A stretch of DNA of 64,000 nt from Escherichia coli. Its GTDB lineage: Bacteria; Pseudomonadota; Gammaproteobacteria; Enterobacterales; Enterobacteriaceae. The translations under genes and the position numbers were made by a program. The notes beneath the pieces are model-generated. The model saw only the letters and a program-made list of their open reading frames with translations, was not told the DNA's origin and ran no database searches. Numbering within the stretch: the first letter of the stretch is position 1; each line of letters starts with the position of its first letter. The DNA lies in the NCBI RefSeq assembly GCF_003018255.1, contig NZ_CP027440.1; one strand, given 5' to 3'. Shown piece by piece: positions 38,895 to 58,841 of the stretch.

Positions 38895-39821
38895 TTACGC
38901 CTCCTCCAGCAGATCCTGAAAATGCAGCGTGCCGCAAGGCTCGCCCTGCGTGTTCACCACCGGCAGCACCTCGCATCCCCGCGCGACAAACAGAGAAAGC
39001 GCATCGCGTAGCGTCATCTCTTCTGCCAGCGCCTCACCTTCTGCCCGTTCTTCGCGACGCACGTAATCCGCCACGCTACGTAACGAAAGCAGGCGGACAC
39101 CCAGTTCACTATGCCCAAAAAACTGGCGGACAAAATCATTCGTCGGACGAGTCAGCATCGTCAGCGGATTGCCCTGCTGCACCACTTCACCGTGATCCAT
39201 CAACACCAGATGTTCTGCCAGTCGTAGCGCCTCATCAATATCATGAGTGACCAGCACAATGGTACGCCCCAGCAAACGGTGTATGCGCGTCATCTCTTGT
39301 TGCAACGCGCCGCGCGTTACCGGGTCCAGCGCGCCAAAAGGTTCATCCATCAGTAAGACTTGCGGATCGGCAGCCAGCGCGCGGGCCACTCCCACACGTT
39401 GCTGCTGACCACCGGAAAGCTGATGCGGATAACGCTCACGCAAATTTGGCTCCAGCCCCAGTAGCGCCATTAATTCGTCGATACGATCGTCGATCCGCGC
39501 CCGTGACCATTTTTGTAATTGCGGCACGGTGGCAATATTTTGCGCCACGCTCCAGTGGGGAAACAGGCCAATAGATTGAATGGCATAGCCCATCCGGCGG
39601 CGCAACTCCAGCACTGGCAGCGAGCGAATTTCTTCTCCGGCAAAGCGGATCACGCCACTGTCATGCTCCACCAGGCGGTTAATCATTTTCAGAGTGGTGG
39701 ATTTACCGGAACCCGACGTGCCAATCAGTACCGAAAAACTCCCTTCCTGAAAATTGAGATTGAGATCGTTAACGGCTTTTTGTGCGCCGAACAGTTTGCT
39801 GACATGGCTAAATTCAATCAT
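38895..39821 (-). CDS. yehX: Osmoprotectant ABC transporter ATP-binding protein
   Basis: 308 aa; Walker [13 protein letters not shown] signature LSGGQQQRV, Walker B VLLMDEP. Confidence 0.9.
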
Positions 39822-40971
39822 TACGTTTCACCTTCAGCAGTGCGATAAGCAAATCGAACAGCGCGTCGGTAAGCACCGCCAGAACAATTACCGGGATCAC
39901 CCCCAGCAACACTAAATCAATGGCACTGCTTAGCAGCCCCTGGAAAACCAGCGCACCAAAACCGCCTGCGCCGATTAACGCCGCAATCACCGCCATGCCA
40001 ACGGTTTGTACCATCACCACCCGCAGGCTGCGCAGAAATACCGGTAACGCCAGCGGTAACTGAACATGCAGGAAACGCTGCACCCCGCTCATCCCCATCG
40101 CTCTGGCGCTCTCCAGCACATCGCGCGGGATCTGGTTCAAGCCGACTACTACGCCGCGCACCAGCGGCAGCAAGGCATAGAGCACCAGCGCAATCAGTGC
40201 GGGTGTCATTCCGGTTCCTGCTATGCCGAGCGTTCCCAGCCACGGAAAGGCCGTAACCAGCGCGGCAAGCGGCGCAATCAGCAGGCCAAAGAGCGCTACC
40301 GAAGGCACGGTCTGAATGACATTCAGCAGAGAAAAAATCGCCCCCTGCCGCGCGGTGGAAAAGTAGCACCAGATGCCCAACGGCACACCAATCACTAACG
40401 CAGGCAGCACCGCACCAAACAGCAACGTCAGATGTTGTGCCAGCGCGTCGTCAAACACATCCTGACGGTTGGCGTATTCTTTCATTAACGAGAGATCGTT
40501 AAGCGTGCCGGAGTACAGCAACCACAGCGGAACAATGGCAATCTGCATATGCAACAACCAGCGCCACAGCGGATGCGTGGAGATTCGGCGGATGGCATCG
40601 CTACAGGCCAGCAGTGCCAGCGCCGCAGCCAGCCAGAAACCACTTCCGAGGCTGGTACGCGCCAGCGCACTGCCATTTTGCGCCAGTTGTGTCGCCGCCT
40701 TTCCAGCTCCCCACACCAGCAATACGAAGACGAATTGCGCCAGAATGAGTGCAAAAATGCTGCCTTTTTTAGCGGGAATAAAACAGGCTGTCAGCCAGGC
40801 GCAACCAACGCCCACCAGCATCCAGAGAGTTTGCGGCCACAGCTGCCAGAGATGACGCCCCTCACCCGAAACTAAACGATTAGGTGCGTAACTGATAAAC
40901 GGCAGCGCCGCTGCGATTGCCGTCAGCAACAGCAGCAGCGCCAGAACAGGATTAATACGGAAATAAGTCAC
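39814..40971 (-). CDS. yehY: Osmoprotectant ABC transporter permease
   Basis: 385-aa membrane ORF; apparent GTG start as given by the track; overlaps yehX by 8 nt. Confidence 0.8.
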
Positions 40972-40977
40972 GGGAAA

Positions 40978-41895
40978 TTACTTCGTCCACCCTTTTTGTT
41001 TCAGGTAGTCGGCTGCCACTTTTTTGGCATCCAGTCCTTCCACTGCAATGCTGGCATTCAGCTGCTGCAATGTTTTTTCATCGAGGCTGGCGAAGACTGG
41101 CTGTAGCCACTGTGCTATTTGCGGATACTCTTTCAGCACCGACTCACGCACCACTGGCGCAGGCGCGTAGATAGGTTGCACGCCTTGCGGATCGCTTAAA
41201 GTTTGCAGCCCCAGCGCCGCGACCGGGCCGTCAGTGCCGTAAGCCATCGCCGCATTAACGCCAGAGGTTTGCTGGGCAGCGGCTTTGATCGTCACCGCCG
41301 TGTCACCACCGGCCAGTGACAGCAACTGATCCTGACTGAGCTTAAAGCCATAGGCTTTTTCAAACGCGGGTAAGGCATCGGCGCGTTCGATAAACTCTGC
41401 CGAGGCTGCCAGTTTAAAGGTGCCGCCCTCTTTCAGATAACGACTCAGGTCGGCAAGCGAAGTGAGTTTGTTTTTCTCTGCCACATCCTGACGCACGGCG
41501 ATGGTCCAGGTGTTATTTGCAGGCGCGGGCGTCAGCCAGATTAACTTGTTTTGCTCTGCATCGAGTTTTTTGACTTTCTCATAGCCTTGCTGCGCGTTTT
41601 TCCATGCCGTATCGTTTTCATCTTTAAAGAAAAACGCGCCATTGCCAGTATATTCCGGATAGATATCCAGCTCGCCAGAAGTGATCGCCCCGCGCACTAC
41701 GGGAGTCGTTCCCAGCTGCACTTTATTTACCGTAGGAACGCCGTGACTTTCCAGCACCTGCAAAATGATATTGCCGAGCAGCGCGCCTTCCGTATCGATT
41801 TTTGAACCAACCTTAACGGGGGAAGCCGCCTGTAGCGGCAGGCTCACGGCTGCCAACAAAACCAGTGAACCTGCCCAGACCTTTGAGAGTGGCAT
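40978..41895 (-). CDS. osmF: Periplasmic glycine betaine/osmoprotectant-binding protein
   Basis: 305-aa ORF with signal peptide; first gene of the operon. Confidence 0.85.
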   Translation of the reverse strand: MPLSKVWAGSLVLLAAVSLPLQAASPVKVGSKIDTEGALLGNIILQVLESHGVPTVNKVQLGTTPVVRGAITSGELDIYPEYTGNGAFFFKDENDTAWKNAQQGYEKVKKLDAEQNKLIWLTPAPANNTWTIAVRQDVAEKNKLTSLADLSRYLKEGGTFKLAASAEFIERADALPAFEKAYGFKLSQDQLLSLAGGDTAVTIKAAAQQTSGVNAAMAYGTDGPVAALGLQTLSDPQGVQPIYAPAPVVRESVLKEYPQIAQWLQPVFASLDEKTLQQLNASIAVEGLDAKKVAADYLKQKGWTK

Positions 41896-47264: not shown

Positions 47265-47437
47265 GATGAGCATTCAGATAGTGGTTCACGCGCACGGGTT
47301 GCGCACCGCCGGAGTAAGGATTTACTGAGGCTAGCGACGCCATCATAACGAGCAAAAAGTGCGATCGTCAAAGAAGAATCGTGAGGAAATGCTGCATTGC
47401 TGACATTTACGCCAGCAATGCAGCGCAAAAGAACTTT

Positions 47438-48891: not shown

Positions 48892-49653
48892 CTATTCTGG
48901 GTTGAACTGCGGATTCGCCAACATAAAGCCGCCATCCACTATCAACGACTGCCCGGTGGTGTAATTTGCGCCCTCCGAACAAAGCCATACCACCAGGCTG
49001 GCAATCTCATGCGTTGTGCCAAAACGTCGCAAGGGAATCGAAGGCTCCGCGTCGGGCCTCACATCGCTATCATCCATGCCGTTCATTGGCGTGGCGATCG
49101 CCCCAGGTGCGACTGCGTTCACCAAAATTTTATGCCTGACCAACTCCAGCGCCATTGCTTTGGTTAACCCGCCGAGCGCATGTTTAGCTGCTGTGTAAGC
49201 GCTGGCATCCGGCAGCGGCGTATGTTCATGCACCGACGTAATGTTGATGATGCGACCGCCCTGCCCTTGTTTCACCATCTGACGAGCCGCAATTTGCGAG
49301 CATAAGAATGCACCGTCGACATCAACGGTAAAAATCTTGCGCCACTCATCAAAAGCCATATCAAGAAACGGCGCTTTGGTCATTGCACCCGCATTATTCA
49401 CCAGCACATCGATGCGCCCCAGTCGTTGAATGAGTTTCTCCAGCGCCTGCGCACCTTCTGACAGTTTACCGAGATCCAGCTGCACGATCTCCGCACGTGC
49501 GCCGTGGCTAACCACCTCACGCGCAGTATCTTTTGCCCCTTCTTCATCAGAGTGCCAGGTAATGCCAATATCAAACCCCTGCTGCGCCAGTAATAACGCG
49601 CACTCTTTGCCGATCCCCGAATCGGAGGCGGTAATTATCGCGACCTGTGCCAT
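48892..49653 (-). CDS. yohF: Short-chain dehydrogenase/reductase (SDR)
   Basis: Start set at the internal Met (MAQVAIITASDSGIGK, Rossmann motif) for 253 aa; catalytic YxxxK (YTAAKHA). Confidence 0.85.
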   Translation of the reverse strand: MAQVAIITASDSGIGKECALLLAQQGFDIGITWHSDEEGAKDTAREVVSHGARAEIVQLDLGKLSEGAQALEKLIQRLGRIDVLVNNAGAMTKAPFLDMAFDEWRKIFTVDVDGAFLCSQIAARQMVKQGQGGRIINITSVHEHTPLPDASAYTAAKHALGGLTKAMALELVRHKILVNAVAPGAIATPMNGMDDSDVRPDAEPSIPLRRFGTTHEIASLVVWLCSEGANYTTGQSLIVDGGFMLANPQFNPE

Positions 49654-49705
49654 CGAGTTCTCCACTTAACGCTGAATAAATGTTAAGTATAGAAGGCGCA
49701 TATCA

Positions 49706-51142
49706 TCAGCGTTTGTAACCTCCGCCCAGCGCACCGGTGAGTTGAATGGAGGCATCCAGCCACTGCCCTTGCAATAACAGGCCATTGGCCCGCTCACGCA
49801 GCGCGGGGATTCTGGCTTCGCTGACGCGGGAACCAGCAATGATGCCCGCGTTAAAGCGCGCCTGCGCAAGACCTACCACACGCAAGGCATCGTGCTCAAT
49901 TTGCGCCTGATGCTGGTTTTTCTCCGCCAGTGTCTGAACCTGGCTGGCCGCCCGCGCCACGTCATTTACCGCTTCAACCACCGCTTTGTTGTAGCTGGCG
50001 ATAGACAAGTTGCTTTCGGCTTTTGCGATATCGAGATTGGCGTTAAGACGACCACTATCGAAAATGGGTAGCGTCAGGCCTGCCGTAACGCCCATTTGCT
50101 GCGCGGAATGACGGAACAGATCGCTTAAGTGCAACGCATCCTGTTGCAGAAAGGCCATCAGGTTGATGTCAGGATAAAATGCCGCTTTTGCCGCATCAAT
50201 AGTGCTTAACGATGACTCAACGTACCAGTGCGCCGCCTGCAAATCTGCCCGCCGGGCCAGTAAGGAGTACCCGAGTTCATCAGGAAGCTGACTTGCCACT
50301 TTCGGCAACGCGACCGGTTTAAGCTTCAATGACTTTGTCTGGTGGTTGGTGAGCGCACTTAACCGTGCCTCAATAATTTTCATTTTCCCCGCGACATCGT
50401 TGAGCTGCTGCCGGGTTTTGCTGGCATTAATATCGGTTTCCACACCTTCAACTGAAGAAGTAATCCCGTTCTGATATAGCTGGCGATCGGTCGCGATAAT
50501 GGTGTTCTGCTCTTTTTCGATTTGCTGCAAGACCGTGTTTAACGCCGCCTGGGTTTGCCACTCCCAGTACAGGCGGGCTACGCTGCCAGCCAGCAATTGG
50601 CAGGTTTGCTCGCGTTCCGCCGCCCGTGCTTTAACCGTACCGAGGCGAGCAGTAACCTCCGCCCGATTCTTTCCCCAGATATCGAGATGCCAGCCCGCCG
50701 TTAAGCCAAAAGTACCGTTGGTGTACCACGGACCGGTCGTACCTGCGGCAGGATCGTTCAGAGCAAACGGCCCCATTAACCCTTCTGCAGACATTTTTTG
50801 CCGCTCCATATCCGCAGAAAAGTCGATCTGCGGACCATCCTGAGTGGCAACTGCCTTCGCCTGGGCTTCAGCCAGCTGAATGCGCTGTTCAGCCACCTGC
50901 ATATCCGGTGCGTTCTGTAGTGCGTTATTAATTAAGGAAGTGAGTTGATTATCGTGATACTCCAGCCACCATTGGCTGTCTGGCCAACCATTTTTCAGCG
51001 CCGTGGGTAATACGGTGTCAACTTGTGCAGCGGGCGTTTGCTGGCTTAACGCCTGGCGGGTTTCATGCATAGGTGCACACCCGGCCAGCATCAGTAACAG
51101 CGGAAAACAGGCGATGGCGGGATAAAAGGAATCACGATTCAT
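49706..51142 (-). CDS. mdtQ: Outer-membrane efflux lipoprotein (NodT/OprM family); intact here
   Basis: Start set at the internal Met (MNRDSFYPAIACFPLLLMLAGC, lipobox) for 478 aa, uninterrupted. Confidence 0.8.
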   Translation of the reverse strand: MNRDSFYPAIACFPLLLMLAGCAPMHETRQALSQQTPAAQVDTVLPTALKNGWPDSQWWLEYHDNQLTSLINNALQNAPDMQVAEQRIQLAEAQAKAVATQDGPQIDFSADMERQKMSAEGLMGPFALNDPAAGTTGPWYTNGTFGLTAGWHLDIWGKNRAEVTARLGTVKARAAEREQTCQLLAGSVARLYWEWQTQAALNTVLQQIEKEQNTIIATDRQLYQNGITSSVEGVETDINASKTRQQLNDVAGKMKIIEARLSALTNHQTKSLKLKPVALPKVASQLPDELGYSLLARRADLQAAHWYVESSLSTIDAAKAAFYPDINLMAFLQQDALHLSDLFRHSAQQMGVTAGLTLPIFDSGRLNANLDIAKAESNLSIASYNKAVVEAVNDVARAASQVQTLAEKNQHQAQIEHDALRVVGLAQARFNAGIIAGSRVSEARIPALRERANGLLLQGQWLDASIQLTGALGGGYKR

Positions 51143-51365
51143 GGGGGAATAATCAGGTAAGAAAAGGTGCGCGGAGATTACCGTGTGTTGCGATATATTT
51201 TTTAGTTTCGCGTGGCAATACATCAGTAGCAATAAAACGACATATCCAGAAAAATATACACTAAGTGAATGATATCTTCCTATTTATCTTAATCGTTTAT
51301 GGATAGCGGCAAAGGGCTTCGTTTTTTCCTATACTTATTCAGCACTCACAAATAAAGGAACGCCA

Positions 51366-51449
51366 ATGAAAATTATACTCTGGGCTGTATTGATTATTTT
51401 CCTGATTGGGCTACTGGTGGTGACTGGCGTATTTAAGATGATATTTTAA
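51366..51449 (+). CDS. yohP: Small membrane peptide, 27 aa
   Basis: AAGGA RBS then ATG; encodes MKIILWAVLIIFLIGLLVVTGVFKMIF; below the ORF-track cutoff. Confidence 0.6.
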   Translation: MKIILWAVLIIFLIGLLVVTGVFKMIF

Positions 51450-51499: not shown

Positions 51500-51770
51500 C
51501 ATCCTGTTGCGCTCCTGTCATGTGCATTGCTTCATATAATCACTGGCGCAAGGAGCGCGCAGGGGGCGGCCAATCGCCGCCGCCCCCTGCACCCCCGGGC
51601 TCTGGCGAACAAAATCGCCGCTGCGCGGTGCCCTCGGCTTATCCCTTACGGCTACCGGGTCGGGCGCGAGGTAACATCCCTGTAAAACGCGCCCTCAGCC
51701 CACATCCATGTGGGCTGCCCCGGCCTTCAGGGAACGCCTCGGCGATTTTGACGCCACCAAACAACCGTGC
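51500..51770. other. GC-rich, highly structured intergenic element with nested inverted repeats
   Basis: Perfect 12-bp stem gcagggggcggc/gccgccccctgc (51559..51590), palindrome cagcccacat/atgtgggctg (about 51697..51718), long-range pair caaaatcgccg/cggcgattttg (about 51610 and 51740); composition contrasts with the AT-rich flanks. Confidence 0.4.
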
Positions 51771-51821
51771 GGCCTATTGATAAAGAGCTAACACATTGTC
51801 AAAAAACATCACTATGGTTTC

Positions 51822-52830: not shown

Positions 52831-54024
52831 TCAGCGTGGTTGCAAACAGTTATCTTCTTTCCAGCCGTACAGCCACTCCATGCCGCGGTAAAACTCTGCC
52901 TGCGATTTCCCTTTCCACAACAGGTTACGTACCTGGCGCTCTACTCCTGCGGCATGATAAACCCGCCCCATTTCACGGGTCGACCAGACGATGCGCGCGG
53001 TGCGCGGAATACGTACCGACTCATACAGCGCAAAGGCTTGTGCCGCATCACCCTCACACTGCGCCAGCGCCTTACCCAGTGTTACCGCGTCTTCCAGCGC
53101 CATACAGGCACCCTGCGCCATATACTGCGCCACCGGATGGGCCGCATCGCCCACCAGCGTAATGCGCTTCGTTCCCCACTTCGCTACCGGTTCACGGTCG
53201 GCGGTTGACCAGCGTCGCCAGGAGGTCGGTTTATCCAGCATCTGGCGCGGACGGGGGTGAATCCCTTCAAAGTAAGAGAGCACTTCCTCTTTACTGCCAT
53301 CCTTCACGCCCCACTCTTCCTGCTGGCGGCTGTGGAATGTCACCACCAGGTTATACTGCTTGCCGCCACGTAAAGGGTAATGCACCAAGTGACAGCACGG
53401 CCCCGCCCACAGTACTGGTGCGTTAATGCGCAAATCTTCCGGCATATCGGCACAATCGATAACCGCACGGTAGACCACATGCCCGGTGACACGCGGCGCA
53501 TCGCCCAATAAGCTCTGGCGCACCACTGACTTCACGCCGTCACAGCCAATCAGAATATCGCCGATCCAACTATTGCCGCGATCGTCGAAAACGGTGACAT
53601 CGTCTTCTGTCTCGCGAATATCCACGACGTTGGTGGAGGTGTGATATTCCACGTCCGGATGCGTCAGTACCGCTTCCCACACCGAGGCATGAATATCAAC
53701 CCGGTGGATCACCGCGTAAGGGCCGCCGAAATGATCGCGAAAGGCCTGACCGGTTTCAATGCGCACCACTTCTTCGGCGTTTACCGCATCCATCATGGTG
53801 ATGTGATCGGTGAATACCGCGCGCTGGCGGGCGATTTCACCGACGCCGAGGCTATCCAACGCCGAAAACGCATTTGGCCCCAACTGGATACCTGCGCCAA
53901 TCTCACCGATCTCATGCGCCTTTTCCAGCAGCACCACTTTGATCCCCTGGCGGGCCAGTGACAACGCAGTTGCCGCACCGCCGATCCCGCCTCCCACAAT
54001 TACTGCGCGTGTCACTTTAGTCAT
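52831..54024 (-). CDS. FAD-dependent aromatic monooxygenase, likely 3-hydroxybenzoate 6-hydroxylase (MhbM-like)
   Basis: 397 aa; dinucleotide-binding motif [20 protein letters not shown] and GDAAH motif; last gene of a gentisate-pathway operon. Confidence 0.8.
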
Positions 54025-54038
54025 TATGGTTCTCCTGG

Positions 54039-54686
54039 TCAGGCTGAAATTTTATCTTGTTGATTTTCTGGCGCTGCGGCAATGAACGCTGGCAGCTGCG
54101 TGCAGGCGTCGTACACCGCTTTGCAGCGCGGATACCCGCTCAGATCGCAGTTCATACGTAGCGCGTTCGCCCACTGTGGAACAAGGCAGCAATCTGCCAG
54201 CGTCGGCGTCTCGCCCACACAAAATTGCCCCGACTGGCTCTGGCGCAGTAGCTGTTCCACCGCGCTTAACCCTTGCTGGATCCAGTGCGCATACCAGCGT
54301 TTTTTATCTTCTTCACTGACGTTCAGCTCTTCGGTCAGGTAGCGCAGCACGCGTAGGTTATTCAATGGATGAATATCGCAGGCGATGGCATAGACAATTT
54401 CCAGCACCTTGTTGCGGGCCGGTTCTTCCTGCGGCATCAGCGGAACTTGCGGGTAGTGACTCTCCAGCCAGTCAATAATCGCCAGCGATTGTCCGAGTGA
54501 TTCGCCCTCGTCGGTCAGCAGCGTCGGCACCAGCCCGACCGGATTCATCCGCCGGTAGGCCAGTTCGTTTTGCTGACCAATGCGGATATTCACCCCTTCG
54601 GTCTGGTAATCGATACCCTTCAGCGCCAGCGCAATGCGCACCCGGTAAGACGCTGAACTATTAAAAAAACTGTACAGCTTCATCAT
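54039..54686 (-). CDS. Maleylpyruvate isomerase (GST-zeta / maleylacetoacetate isomerase family; MhbI-like)
   Basis: Start set at the ATG giving MMKLYSFFNSSASYRVRIALALKG (GAGGTG SD); the track start is a TTG. Confidence 0.75.
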   Translation of the reverse strand: MMKLYSFFNSSASYRVRIALALKGIDYQTEGVNIRIGQQNELAYRRMNPVGLVPTLLTDEGESLGQSLAIIDWLESHYPQVPLMPQEEPARNKVLEIVYAIACDIHPLNNLRVLRYLTEELNVSEEDKKRWYAHWIQQGLSAVEQLLRQSQSGQFCVGETPTLADCCLVPQWANALRMNCDLSGYPRCKAVYDACTQLPAFIAAAPENQQDKISA

Positions 54687-54690
54687 CACC

Positions 54691-55392
54691 TCAGACAATC
54701 TTCACCGCGATAGGCGTTAAGCCCTCGACGTTGCCCGTGATCACATCACCTTTGACTACTGAGCCAACCCCTTCCGGCGTACCGGTAAAGATTAGATCGC
54801 CCGGTTGCAGTTCAAAGAAGCCTGACAGGTAGCTGATGGTTTCATTCACTGACCAGATGAGATGACGAATATCGCTGCGCTGATGATCTTCGCCGTTAAC
54901 CTGTAACCAGATAGGTGCGTTATCAATACCGCCAGTTTCGCTGGCTTTGTGCAGCGGCGCGATGGGGGCCGAGAGATCGAACGCTTTGCCGATTTCCCAC
55001 GGGCGGCCCATCTGGCGCATTTCCATTTGACGGTCACGGCGAGTCATATCAAGACCCGTGGCATAACCCCAGACATATTCATGGGCGTTTTCCAGCGGGA
55101 TATCACTGCCTTTTTTACCAATCGCCACCACCAGTTCAATTTCATAATGGTAGTTATCGGTCTGCGCCGGATACGGCAGCGCCAGCGTTTCGCCAGCGGC
55201 AACCGGAACAATGGCATCCGCCGGTTTGCAGAAGAAGAATGGCGGTTCACGATCCGGATCAAAGCCCATTTCGCGGGCGTGGGCGGCATAGTTACGTCCG
55301 ACGCAGTAAACGCGGCGTACGGGGAATTGTTCATCACTGCCAACAACCGGTACGGTAACGGGCGCTTGTGGTTCGAATACGTATTGAGTCAT
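54691..55392 (-). CDS. Fumarylpyruvate hydrolase (fumarylacetoacetate hydrolase family; MhbH-like)
   Basis: 233-aa FAH-fold ORF between the dioxygenase and isomerase genes. Confidence 0.8.
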
Positions 55393-55407
55393 TTTCTCTC
55401 TCCCAAA

Positions 55408-56436
55408 TTAATAACGTGCTTCGCGGAACAGCCCCAGGGCTTCTTGTACCGGTCTGTCCGAAAAACTAAATAAAACGGTATCTTGCGTGGTCTGGAACGA
55501 CACGCCGTGCCAGGTCGGCACCACGAAGATATCTTTTGCACTAAAGCTGAAGGTTTCATTGCCGATAGTGACCTGCCCGCTACCTTCCACCACATGGTAG
55601 ATGGTGCTGTCAGTGGTACGCGCCACGCGTGAGGCAAACCCTTTCGGCAGCAGTTGCAGAAAAGCGCCCATCGACGGCATCGGATAGCCACCGGTGACCG
55701 GGTTGACGTAGCGCATTTTGTAGCCATCCCACTCATCGGCATCGCCCAGGCGGGTTAAATCGTGTAGCACTTCGCGGCTACGGTCATAACGGTAGTTAAA
55801 GATGGGCGAGGAGTTCCCGGTCTGATGGCGCAACGGCAACATATTGGCAGCGTAACGCGGCAGGTAATCGCCCTCTTTACGCGTTACTGGTTGTTGCTCC
55901 TCCGGGTAATCTTCGGCAAAACCGCAGCCCAGAGTGTTCACTAATGGCAGATCCAGCCCATCGAGCCAGATAACCGGTTCGTCGCCAGGGTTACCGTGAT
56001 CGTGCCAGCGCCACTGCGGGGTCAGGATAAAATCGCCCTCATTCATTGACGTGCGTTCGCCATCAACGGCGGTGAATGCCCCTTTACCTTCAACAATAAA
56101 ACGCAGCGCCGACTGGTTATGGCGATGACTCGGTGCCACTTCGCCCGGCATGATCAGTTGCAAACCGGCATATAAAGTCGCGGTGATGGAAGACTGCCCG
56201 CGCAGCGCCGGGTTTTCCAGCACCAGCACGCGGCGCACGGCTTCTTTCGCGCCAATCAGGCTGCCGCTCTCCAGCAGCAACGGGCGGATCTCCTGATAAT
56301 TCCAGTACGCTGGCGCACAGTTAGCGTTGGGCGTTTTTGGCACCAGATGGTGCAGTGACTCCCACAGCGGGGTCAGGTTTTGCCCGGAAATATGCTGATA
56401 AAATTGCTCGCGGCTATTTTGATTGTTATCAGTCAT
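55408..56436 (-). CDS. Gentisate 1,2-dioxygenase (bicupin; MhbD-like)
   Basis: 342-aa ORF with cupin His motif ([13 protein letters not shown]). Confidence 0.85.
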
Positions 56437-56447
56437 TGGGATGCTCC

Positions 56448-57806
56448 TTATTCGTTCACAACACCTGCGTGAGGCAGTGAGTCAGGGACAGAGGTCGACT
56501 GGCGAACCACGGTGATCAGCTGGGTTAACATCACCGCACTGATCGCCGCGGGCACAGCGATAATGAAAAACAGGGTGTCGAAAGAGAAATTCATCGCCAT
56601 CATAACGCCGCCAGACAGCGAGCCAACAATCGCGCCGCAGCGGCCCACGGCGTTTGACCAGCTCACGCCCGTGGCGCGACTTTGTGTTGGATAAAGTGTT
56701 GCGGTCAGCGCATTCAGCCCCACCTGCGATCCGCTGATGCCAATGCCGGTGCCGAAAATCGCCAGCGCCATTAGCCATAATCCGTCCTGGCTTAAGCCAA
56801 TCATCACGATGCATACAGCGCCTATGGCATAGCTCAGCGCCAGTACGCGGAAAGGATTGAACTTATCCATAAGCACGCCCAGCGCCAGCGCGCCCAACGT
56901 ACCGCCAATCTGGAACGCGGCGGTAACCCAGGAGGCATGTTGCAGGTCGATGCCGCGATGGTTGAGCTGCGTTGGCATCCAGCTTGAGAGCAGGTAAATA
57001 ATCAGCAAGCTCATAAAGAACACCACCCACAGCATCAACGTGATGGGTAACTGACGCCCCATAAACAGTTGACGAATGCTGCCTTTTGTAACGGAGGCTG
57101 ATTCAATGAGATAAAAGTGGGTATCGACATAACGCTCGCGGATGATGGCGCTGACGGTTTTCGCAATCACCGCCTGGGGTAGCTGGCGGCGCACCTGCCA
57201 GCGTGGCGATTCCGGCAGAACCACCAGCAGTGCAACAAACAGCATCAGCGGTAATACGCCACCCAACACCAGGATCCCGTGCCAGCCAATCACCGGCACC
57301 AGCTGCGCGCTGACAATCCCGCCAAACGCCGAACCCAGGGTAAAGCCGCAAAACATCAGCGTCACCAGCGCGCCGCGGCGGCGGGCAGGCAGATATTCCG
57401 AGGTCATGGTAATTGTATTTGGCATCGCGCCACCCAGCCCAAGGCCGGTGAGGAAACGCAGGAATACCAGCGTTTGCAGATCCGGTGAGAAAGCCGAGGC
57501 GAGGCTTAACGCGCCAAACAAAAAGACGCACAGCTCAATCACCCGTTTGCGGCCAAAGCGATCGGACAACGGACCACAAAGCAGTGCGCCTGCGGTTAAC
57601 CCCAGCAGACCCGCGCCAAAAAGCGGGGCGAGATCGCCTGCGGTGAGTTGCCAGTGAGTGCGAATATCAGGGGCGATAAAGCCGATAGCCGCGGTGTCAA
57701 AACCATCGAGCATTACCACCAGAAAACAGCAGATGATAACGCGCCACTGCATCTTGCCGACCGGAGCAGCATCGATCAGTGCTTGTAAATCACGTCGTTG
57801 AGTCAT
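56448..57806 (-). CDS. MFS aromatic-acid:H+ symporter, likely 3-hydroxybenzoate transporter (MhbT-like)
   Basis: 452-aa 12-TM-type ORF; first structural gene, divergent from the LysR regulator. Confidence 0.8.
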
Positions 57807-57932
57807 AGTAAATGCCTCAGTGCAGGTAAGGTAGATGTTTCATTTGTTTTATGTATGTTGCGATATTGTGATTAAAGAGATGAAATGTACAATGGCATTT
57901 CGGACAGAGAGATAACCTGGAGGTTATGGCAA

Positions 57933-58841
57933 ATGGCAAACTGGGCGCAGAAACTAAAGCTTCATCACCTGCAAATGCTGGTGGCGCTGGGTGAACAGGG
58001 CAATCTGACCCATGTCGCGCGGATGATGAATATCACCCAGCCTGCGCTGTCGAAATGGTTGTCACAACTCGAAGATGAGATCGGCCTCACACTCTTTGAG
58101 CGGCACAGCAAAGGACTTCGTCCTACTGAAGGCGGCAAATTGTTATTGCAACATGCCCAACGGTTAATCAATGACATGGAGCGCTCGCAACATGAACTGG
58201 CCCGTTTTAAACAAGGTGGACTGGTCGGCAGTCTGAAAATTGGCTGTTCTCCCGTCGCCACTGACTGCGTATCCCAGGCGATTTTGCATTTGCTCAAGGA
58301 GATGCCAACTCTACACCTGAATATCGAAGAGAAGGTGATGACCCCATTGCTGCAAGATCTGTTGGCAGGTTCTGTCGATGTGGTGGTTGGGCGAATTGGC
58401 GGTCGCGCGTTGCAGCTGCCGCTGAATTATCGCGTGCTCTACACCGAGCCGGTGTGTTTTGTCGCCCGTCCTGAGCATCCACTGGCGAAATACGCCACCC
58501 TCAGCTGGAATGATCTTGCTAACTGGCGGTGGATAGTCTGGCCGACAGGTACCCCCATCCGCATCAGCATTGATAATGCGCTGGTAGACCACGGCGTGAT
58601 GCTGCCAGAAAACACGATTGAGTCGGCGTCGATGAACGTCAGTACCAACCTGTTACAAAGCAGCGATATGATCTCTATTTTGTCATTACGCCTGGCGCAA
58701 CGTTATGCCAGCCAGGGACAACTGGTGATTCTCAACCTGCCAAAGATAGAACAGAAAGGCAGCGTCGGTGTGTTCTGGCGCAATAACGAAACGCCTTCTT
58801 ATGCTTTAAGTCAGTTTCTGCACTTTTTACAGCAGAATTAG
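57933..58841 (+). CDS. LysR-family transcriptional regulator of the gentisate cluster (MhbR-like)
   Basis: Start set at the internal Met (MANWAQKLKLHHLQMLVALGEQGNLTHVARMMNITQPALSKWL) within ORF 57885..58841; HTH plus LysR substrate-binding domain. Confidence 0.75.
   Translation: MANWAQKLKLHHLQMLVALGEQGNLTHVARMMNITQPALSKWLSQLEDEIGLTLFERHSKGLRPTEGGKLLLQHAQRLINDMERSQHELARFKQGGLVGSLKIGCSPVATDCVSQAILHLLKEMPTLHLNIEEKVMTPLLQDLLAGSVDVVVGRIGGRALQLPLNYRVLYTEPVCFVARPEHPLAKYATLSWNDLANWRWIVWPTGTPIRISIDNALVDHGVMLPENTIESASMNVSTNLLQSSDMISILSLRLAQRYASQGQLVILNLPKIEQKGSVGVFWRNNETPSYALSQFLHFLQQN

Follow-up and report, generated by a model that had tools for sequence, protein, structure and literature searches.

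The mdtQ gene (formerly yohG) lies on the minus strand of the window, the whole 64-kb stretch of Escherichia coli DNA that was analysed here, where an ATG start is followed by 478 uninterrupted codons and a stop codon. The genes and sequence features that bear on its interpretation are as follows.

48892..49653, minus: yohF, SDR oxidoreductase gene, 52 nt downstream of mdtQ and on the same strand; no pump component
49706..51142, minus: mdtQ (formerly yohG) coding sequence, NodT-type OMF lipoprotein, recognized by its ORF, two Pfam OEP matches and the NCBIfam MdtQ equivalog
50600..50602, minus: codon 181, Cys (TGC), a minor allele, within the long helix H3 (residues 158-224)
50991..50995, minus: A5 run at codons K50-N51 (gene nt 148-152), A4 in K-12, located by alignment with b2139
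51077..51142, minus: signal peptide with lipobox, codons 1-22 (LAGC at 51077-51088), from the translation
51143..51160, minus: translation-initiation region, ending in CCTGATTATTCCCCC-ATG, from the sequence and alignment
51198..51224, minus: conserved 27-nt block, GATGTATTGCCACGCG[A/T]AACTAAAAAA, from the upstream alignment of the window, K-12, Salmonella, and Citrobacter
51366..51449, plus: yohP, 27-aa small membrane protein, divergent from mdtQ, from the annotation of a collinear genome

The predicted product starts with MNRDSFYPAIACFPLLLMLAGC, in which an Arg residue (R3) in the n-region and a hydrophobic core precede the lipobox L-A-G-C (LLLMLAGC), which presumably fits the lipobox pattern of the PROSITE PS51257 type. 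Cys22, followed by Ala at position +2, is predicted to carry the lipid as residue 1 of the mature protein and is invariant across 81 aligned relatives with identities down to 26%. Two tandem OEP repeats span the protein (Pfam PF02321, 5.7e-30), consistent with the outer-membrane factors (OMFs), the TolC-type exit-channel family (TolC/OEP). At the level of subfamilies, the sequence matched the MdtQ equivalog NF008524 over model positions 1-478 of 478 with 1022.1 bits (curated cut-off of 650 bits), and TIGR01845, the NodT subfamily of OMF lipoproteins, over model positions 4-460 of 460 with 272.3 bits (cut-off of 210.05). Given its length and these profile matches, the ORF is not a chance one. 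The continuous 478-codon frame with a lipoprotein signal that had been described by the first-pass annotation is thereby confirmed by the ORF, the lipobox Cys22, and the full-length NF008524 match, to which we add the strand (minus), left unstated there. The identical protein is already present in NCBI under the name MdtQ on 50 contigs, and its 90%-identity cluster comprises 11,156 member sequences. The window ORF is the same gene as MdtQ/YohG of E. coli (NF008524; O157:H7 Q8X659; K-12 pseudogene b2139), showing 97-99% DNA identity to the mdtQ copies of 5420 genomes and having the same flanking genes.

Over all 64 kb the window is collinear with E. coli JNE112863 (99.41% identity), and its annotation was used to survey the surroundings of mdtQ, which include dusC beyond yohP. 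Genes for adaptors or for RND, MFS-EmrB, FUSC, or MacB-type pump components were absent from the 64-kb window according to this annotation, the sole efflux gene being rcnA, which lies outside any three-part pump. The earlier reading that no inner-membrane pump partner adjoins mdtQ can hence be extended to the entire window. The mdtQ gene adjoins yohP/dusC on one side and yohF on the other, with neither an adaptor nor a FUSC gene in 64 kb, and is no member of an MdtNOP-type operon, its product resembling the OMF of such systems through homology alone; yohF and mdtQ are possibly co-transcribed. The gene order dusC-(yohP)-mdtQ-(yohF)-yohD-yohC-pbpG-dld-bglX is also found in Salmonella and Citrobacter, except that Citrobacter lacks yohF and has a methyltransferase gene in place of yohP. 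The position of mdtQ between dusC/yohP and yohF/yohD is thus kept, with this exception, in the window, K-12, Salmonella, and Citrobacter, and the shared gene order indicates that the stand-alone mdtQ predates the split of Salmonella and Citrobacter from Escherichia.

Several further elements were recorded in this region. The GC-rich repeat between dusC and yohP (about 51506-51778) contains inverted repeats, one set at 51559-51590 and another formed by 51610-51625 with 51735-51750; TRIP1c has been placed at the corresponding site, 363 bp upstream of yohG and 43 bp downstream of yohI/dusC. In strain 2016C-3878, yohP-mdtQ is bordered by lysO (ybjE) and IS elements in place of dusC, in agreement with the TRIP1a/1c rearrangements described in PMC10888264. 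An Rfam scan over 45-56 kb returned nothing at mdtQ; it did detect the cis-regulatory motif "Peptidase-S11 RNA" at 47269-47349 on the minus strand, in the pbpG leader (72.8 bits; gathering score of 34.8).

Regarding expression signals, the 27-nt block upstream of mdtQ is invariant between genera except for a single A/T position, and it probably holds the real control element of the gene, as a candidate promoter or regulator site. No Shine-Dalgarno match precedes the mdtQ ATG in Escherichia, Salmonella, or Citrobacter, the initiation region being pyrimidine-rich in all three, and on this ground the expression of MdtQ is probably low or conditional. In a promoter/terminator scan, promoter-like sites at mdtQ did not exceed the shuffle expectation; the single such site on the mdtQ strand is found at 51465-51438, about 300 nt upstream and opposite yohP. 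The promoter of mdtQ is described as lacking experimental confirmation (PMC11762307).

The comparison with K-12 defined the difference between the two alleles at the level of a single nucleotide. The MG1655 copy (b2139, 1436 nt) carries a pseudogene annotation, and the mdtQ copies of W3110 and PG20180173 are flagged "frameshifted", which bears out the statement of the first-pass annotation that the K-12 gene is annotated as a pseudogene. The MG1655 and PG20180173 sequences are identical, and the W3110 gene (L018, 1658-3093) carries the same frameshift as the other K-12 copies. Alignment of the window gene with b2139 revealed 34 substitutions and one gap of 1 nt, which falls in the A5 run, where the window reads GCTGAAAAATGG and K-12 reads GCTGAAAATGG. 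Frame 0 of K-12 stops after 69 amino acids, with the rest open in another frame, and putting one A back into the K-12 A4 run restores a complete 478-codon ORF. The protein encoded by this repaired gene differs from that of the window at four residues (window to K-12: V44A, C181R, H267N, and H417R). Because the repaired ORF is full length and shows only these four differences, the 1-nt deletion is the sole K-12 lesion, and a recent one. The alignment to the K-12 locus that had been suggested earlier therefore places the lesion in the A5 run at codons 50-51.

A broader search across complete E. coli genomes showed how common each allele is. The mdtQ gene was found in 5420 of the 5426 genomes, with a coverage of at least 80% in 5390 of the 5426; all copies are chromosomal, and among the matches listed they are annotated as mdtQ. 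With 84-nt probes across the lesion, the A5 allele of the window was matched exactly in 3738 genomes and the K-12 A4 allele in 355, the length of the A run being established for these exact matches; the remaining genomes (about 1300) differ by SNPs. Among the 30 of these 355 A4 matches that were listed, almost all are recognizable K-12 or laboratory strains, including MG1655, C600, J53, and ER1709 together with evolved derivatives. The window thus carries the wild-type, intact mdtQ that is the normal state of E. coli, and K-12 is the exception. Both the intact gene and its contrast with K-12 are already known, as mdtQ is annotated in thousands of genomes and a 2025 review describes it as a core-genome gene in spite of its pseudogene label, encoded alone and with a function not elucidated (PMC11762307). 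Of the earlier reading, the intact ORF and the K-12 pseudogene hold, and it is the emphasis that shifts, given the retention of the gene in 5390 of 5426 genomes. The gene has also been truncated repeatedly and independently in Typhi and Paratyphi A isolates (PMC9241588); inactive in K-12 and truncated in these isolates, mdtQ is dispensable. As a consequence of a single-base deletion, K-12 is without one of the four outer-membrane efflux channels of E. coli.

The lesion also affects how the drug phenotype attributed to this gene should be read. The susceptibility phenotype of a yohG deletion originates from Sulavik et al. 2001, who reportedly used strain W3110. If the deletion phenotype was obtained in that strain, it was reported for deleting a pseudogene; as W3110 is already frameshifted, this evidence is weak and the phenotype should not be counted. 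[quoted passage not shown] Since mdtQ is broken in K-12, efflux surveys in K-12, including the only reported mdtQ phenotype, cannot tell the role of the intact protein.

The patterns of substitution at mdtQ point to strong purifying selection. The dN/dS ratios (Nei-Gojobori) ranged from 0.03 to 0.11 among four E. coli alleles and from 0.05 to 0.07 in comparison with Salmonella and Citrobacter, where dS exceeds 1.5. Orthologs of 478-479 aa show 80-82% identity throughout Salmonella/Citrobacter and 94% in E. albertii. Of 48 positions with a conservation of 85% or more across 130 distant relatives, 45 are kept in the window protein, which also retains all six invariant positions (C22, P79, R298, P324, P359, and G473). 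The AlphaFold2 monomer model built on the 81-sequence alignment (pLDDT 86, pTM 0.81) predicts a full OMF protomer, with strands at residues 105-116, 139-153, 325-336, and 348-357 and long helices at 158-224, 231-265, 359-431, and 437-471. In Foldseek searches this model retrieved OprN, CusC, VceC, CmeC, SilC, and OprM at E values of about 1e-22 with TM scores of 0.75-0.87. This generic OMF fold is shared by the channels that partner RND pumps, namely OprM, OprN, OprJ, CusC, and MtrE. The closest solved chain by sequence is VceC (1.5e-38), from Vibrio cholerae (PDB 1yc9), a distant relationship with 25% identity and TM scores of 0.75/0.87; VceC is encoded together with VceA and VceB, an MFS pump, whereas MdtQ has no neighboring pump. 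TolC of E. coli belongs to the same overall fold class (E value of about 1e-13, TM scores of 0.64-0.74) and is encoded apart from the pumps it serves, as MdtQ would be; TolC nevertheless shares only 12-13% identity with MdtQ, is no lipoprotein, and has well-established partners and phenotypes. Low dN/dS (0.03-0.11), the 45 of 48 conserved residues, and the confidently modeled full-length OMF fold together lend indirect support to the earlier proposal that the window gene may be functional. Additionally, the Klebsiella pneumoniae homolog YohG (479 aa) has been detected in an outer-membrane proteome (PMC4404324).

One residue sets the window allele apart from most others. Position 181 is Arg in 115 of 116 close homologs and Cys in the window, and the exact 84-nt Cys181 allele is present in 42 of 5398 complete E. 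coli genomes, strain 2016C-3878 among them. Among 130 distant OMFs the same column is variable (R 42%, E 17%, A 12%, K 9%, Q 8%), and R181C was consequently rejected as an inactivating change; judging from this variability, a knockout effect is unlikely and the change is probably mild. The differences between the window and JNE112863 are distributed in patches, one of which, with 51 mismatches at 49461-51281, spans mdtQ together with its upstream region, the sequence on either side being nearly identical; others are located at about 2-12 kb and 30-39 kb. A mismatch patch between near-identical flanks suggests that the mdtQ allele was exchanged by homologous recombination, and the allele accordingly looks like an import by this route.

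Because mdtQ itself stands alone, we turned to its relatives for hints on a pump partner. The nearest characterized paralog is MdtP (YjcP) of the ytcA-mdtNOP operon, with 35% identity (263 bits) and the second-best NCBIfam model for MdtQ (355 bits), both proteins being NodT-type lipoprotein OMFs of about 480 aa. MdtQ falls below the cut-off of the MdtP model (355 vs 597), and whereas MdtP is encoded with the adaptor MdtN and the FUSC-family protein MdtO, MdtQ is encoded alone. The genomic context was sampled in the seven nearest cluster representatives outside Enterobacteriaceae, taken from a search of representative proteins, as listed below.

P0127, P0128, and P0129: genes for YtcA, an AaeA-barrel adaptor, and FUSC, followed by the OMF gene
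P0125 and P0130: FUSC gene directly upstream of the OMF gene; short contigs
P0132: MFS gene upstream and EmrA-like adaptor gene downstream
P0126: contig context uninformative

A FUSC gene was thus located directly upstream in five of the seven representatives, three of which display the full YtcA-adaptor-FUSC-OMF order, and an RND gene was found beside the OMF gene in none of the seven sampled nearest relatives. In the BLASTP comparisons, the OMFs of these relatives were closer to K-12 MdtP (40-53%) than to MdtQ (35-41%), their adaptors were 54-69% identical to MdtN and 27-28% to AaeA, and their FUSC proteins matched MdtO with no BLAST match to AaeB. The sampled FUSC-operon OMFs therefore group with MdtP and not with MdtQ. 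Another relative, P0121 (59-60% identity to MdtQ), lies on a 2.3-kb contig with an SDR (yohF-like) gene downstream, which matches the stand-alone arrangement, and the BLASTP identities place MdtQ and P0121 in a stand-alone lineage that is sister to the MdtP clade. Since the nearest relatives reside in operons of the MdtP-clade YtcA-MdtN-MdtO-MdtP type, we infer an adaptor of the MdtN/AaeA/EmrA class for MdtQ. By analogy with these operons, the most likely docking partners would be MdtN first, followed by AaeA, EmrA, or EmrK, and not RND adaptors. This assignment is made by homology only, and as the relatives are closer to MdtP it may not transfer to MdtQ. The aromatic-acid pump is given as "AaeAB-?" in a 2021 review, with its outer-membrane partner missing. 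AaeAB as the specific partner of MdtQ, an idea raised by this entry and by the FUSC genes beside the relatives, is weakened by the MdtO-like FUSC proteins of the relatives, devoid of AaeB matches, and by their MdtN-like adaptors, and also by the AaeB-dependent effects seen in MG1655, in which mdtQ is inactive.

Taken together, wild-type mdtQ very probably encodes a core NodT-subfamily OMF lipoprotein that would act as the exit duct of a three-part pump encoded elsewhere, through an adaptor of the MdtN/AaeA/EmrA class; the channel and efflux role is proposed by analogy with the family. Following what is established for OMFs, the precursor would be exported by Sec, lipid-modified on Cys22, and Lol-sorted to the outer membrane, in keeping with the Ala residue at position +2. 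Three protomers, each contributing four strands and long helical hairpins, would then assemble into a barrel of 12 strands with a helical tunnel in the periplasm. By docking tip to tip with the adaptor, the tunnel would provide the pump with its exit duct; both the adaptor and the inner-membrane transporter would be encoded outside the locus. A more definite version, in which wild E. coli employs MdtQ as a functional outlet for an adaptor of the AaeA/MdtN/EmrA class, either as a second channel for MdtNO or as the partner of AaeAB, is unlikely in our estimation; a role of this kind would have escaped notice, given that efflux genetics in E. coli has been done almost entirely in K-12, whose gene is inactivated by the lineage-specific 1-nt deletion.

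Two other explanations were weighed against an exit duct for an MdtN/AaeA/EmrA-class adaptor. The gene could be intact and yet silent or decaying, its frame being open only because it has not yet been inactivated and its protein having no present role. Such a state would agree with the lack of a Shine-Dalgarno sequence and of a convincing sigma-70 promoter at mdtQ, with its loss in K-12 at no obvious cost and its repeated truncation in Typhi/Paratyphi A, and with a function that is described as "not elucidated" (PMC11762307). The conserved upstream block nevertheless argues for a maintained regulatory signal, and the R181C change of the window allele, which might be taken as a sign of decay, falls in a column that is variable in the wider OMF family. 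A neutral ORF would, moreover, not stay open at dN/dS values of 0.03-0.11 in all pairs, including those with Salmonella/Citrobacter in which dS exceeds 1.5, whereas full length is kept in 5390 of 5426 genomes and the Klebsiella homolog has been seen in the outer-membrane proteome (PMC4404324). We consequently hold a silent or decaying gene to be quite improbable.

In the other explanation, which we consider highly improbable, MdtQ would act in the manner of TolC and serve AcrAB, MdtABC, and other RND pumps as a general exit duct, as implied by its "multidrug resistance" name. Besides the name, the generic OMF fold common to the RND partners OprM, OprN, OprJ, CusC, and MtrE is compatible with it, as is the increased sensitivity that null mutants are reported to show toward puromycin, acriflavine, and tetraphenylarsonium (PMC11762307). 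The genomic context speaks against this, with none of the seven sampled nearest relatives positioned beside an RND gene. The closest solved sequence, VceC, is the partner of an MFS pump, and the phenotype reportedly comes from a K-12 strain with mdtQ already frameshifted. The identity between MdtQ and TolC, moreover, is only 12% (PMC11762307).

Two additional observations concern other parts of the window. Between dusC and yohJ (52831-58841) there is a 3-hydroxybenzoate/gentisate catabolic cluster comprising genes for 3-hydroxybenzoate 6-monooxygenase, maiA, an FAA-hydrolase-family member, gtdA, mhbT, and a LysR regulator. The cluster is absent at this site in K-12 and present in Salmonella and Citrobacter, so that K-12 appears to have lost it; a 24-kb query including the cluster was covered to 80% or more in approximately 497 of 5426 genomes. 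Finally, yehY (385 aa, 39814-40971) and osmF (305 aa, 40978-41895), both on the minus strand, are open ORFs in the window, whereas the annotation of JNE112863 lists both as pseudogenes, on account of an internal stop and a frameshift.
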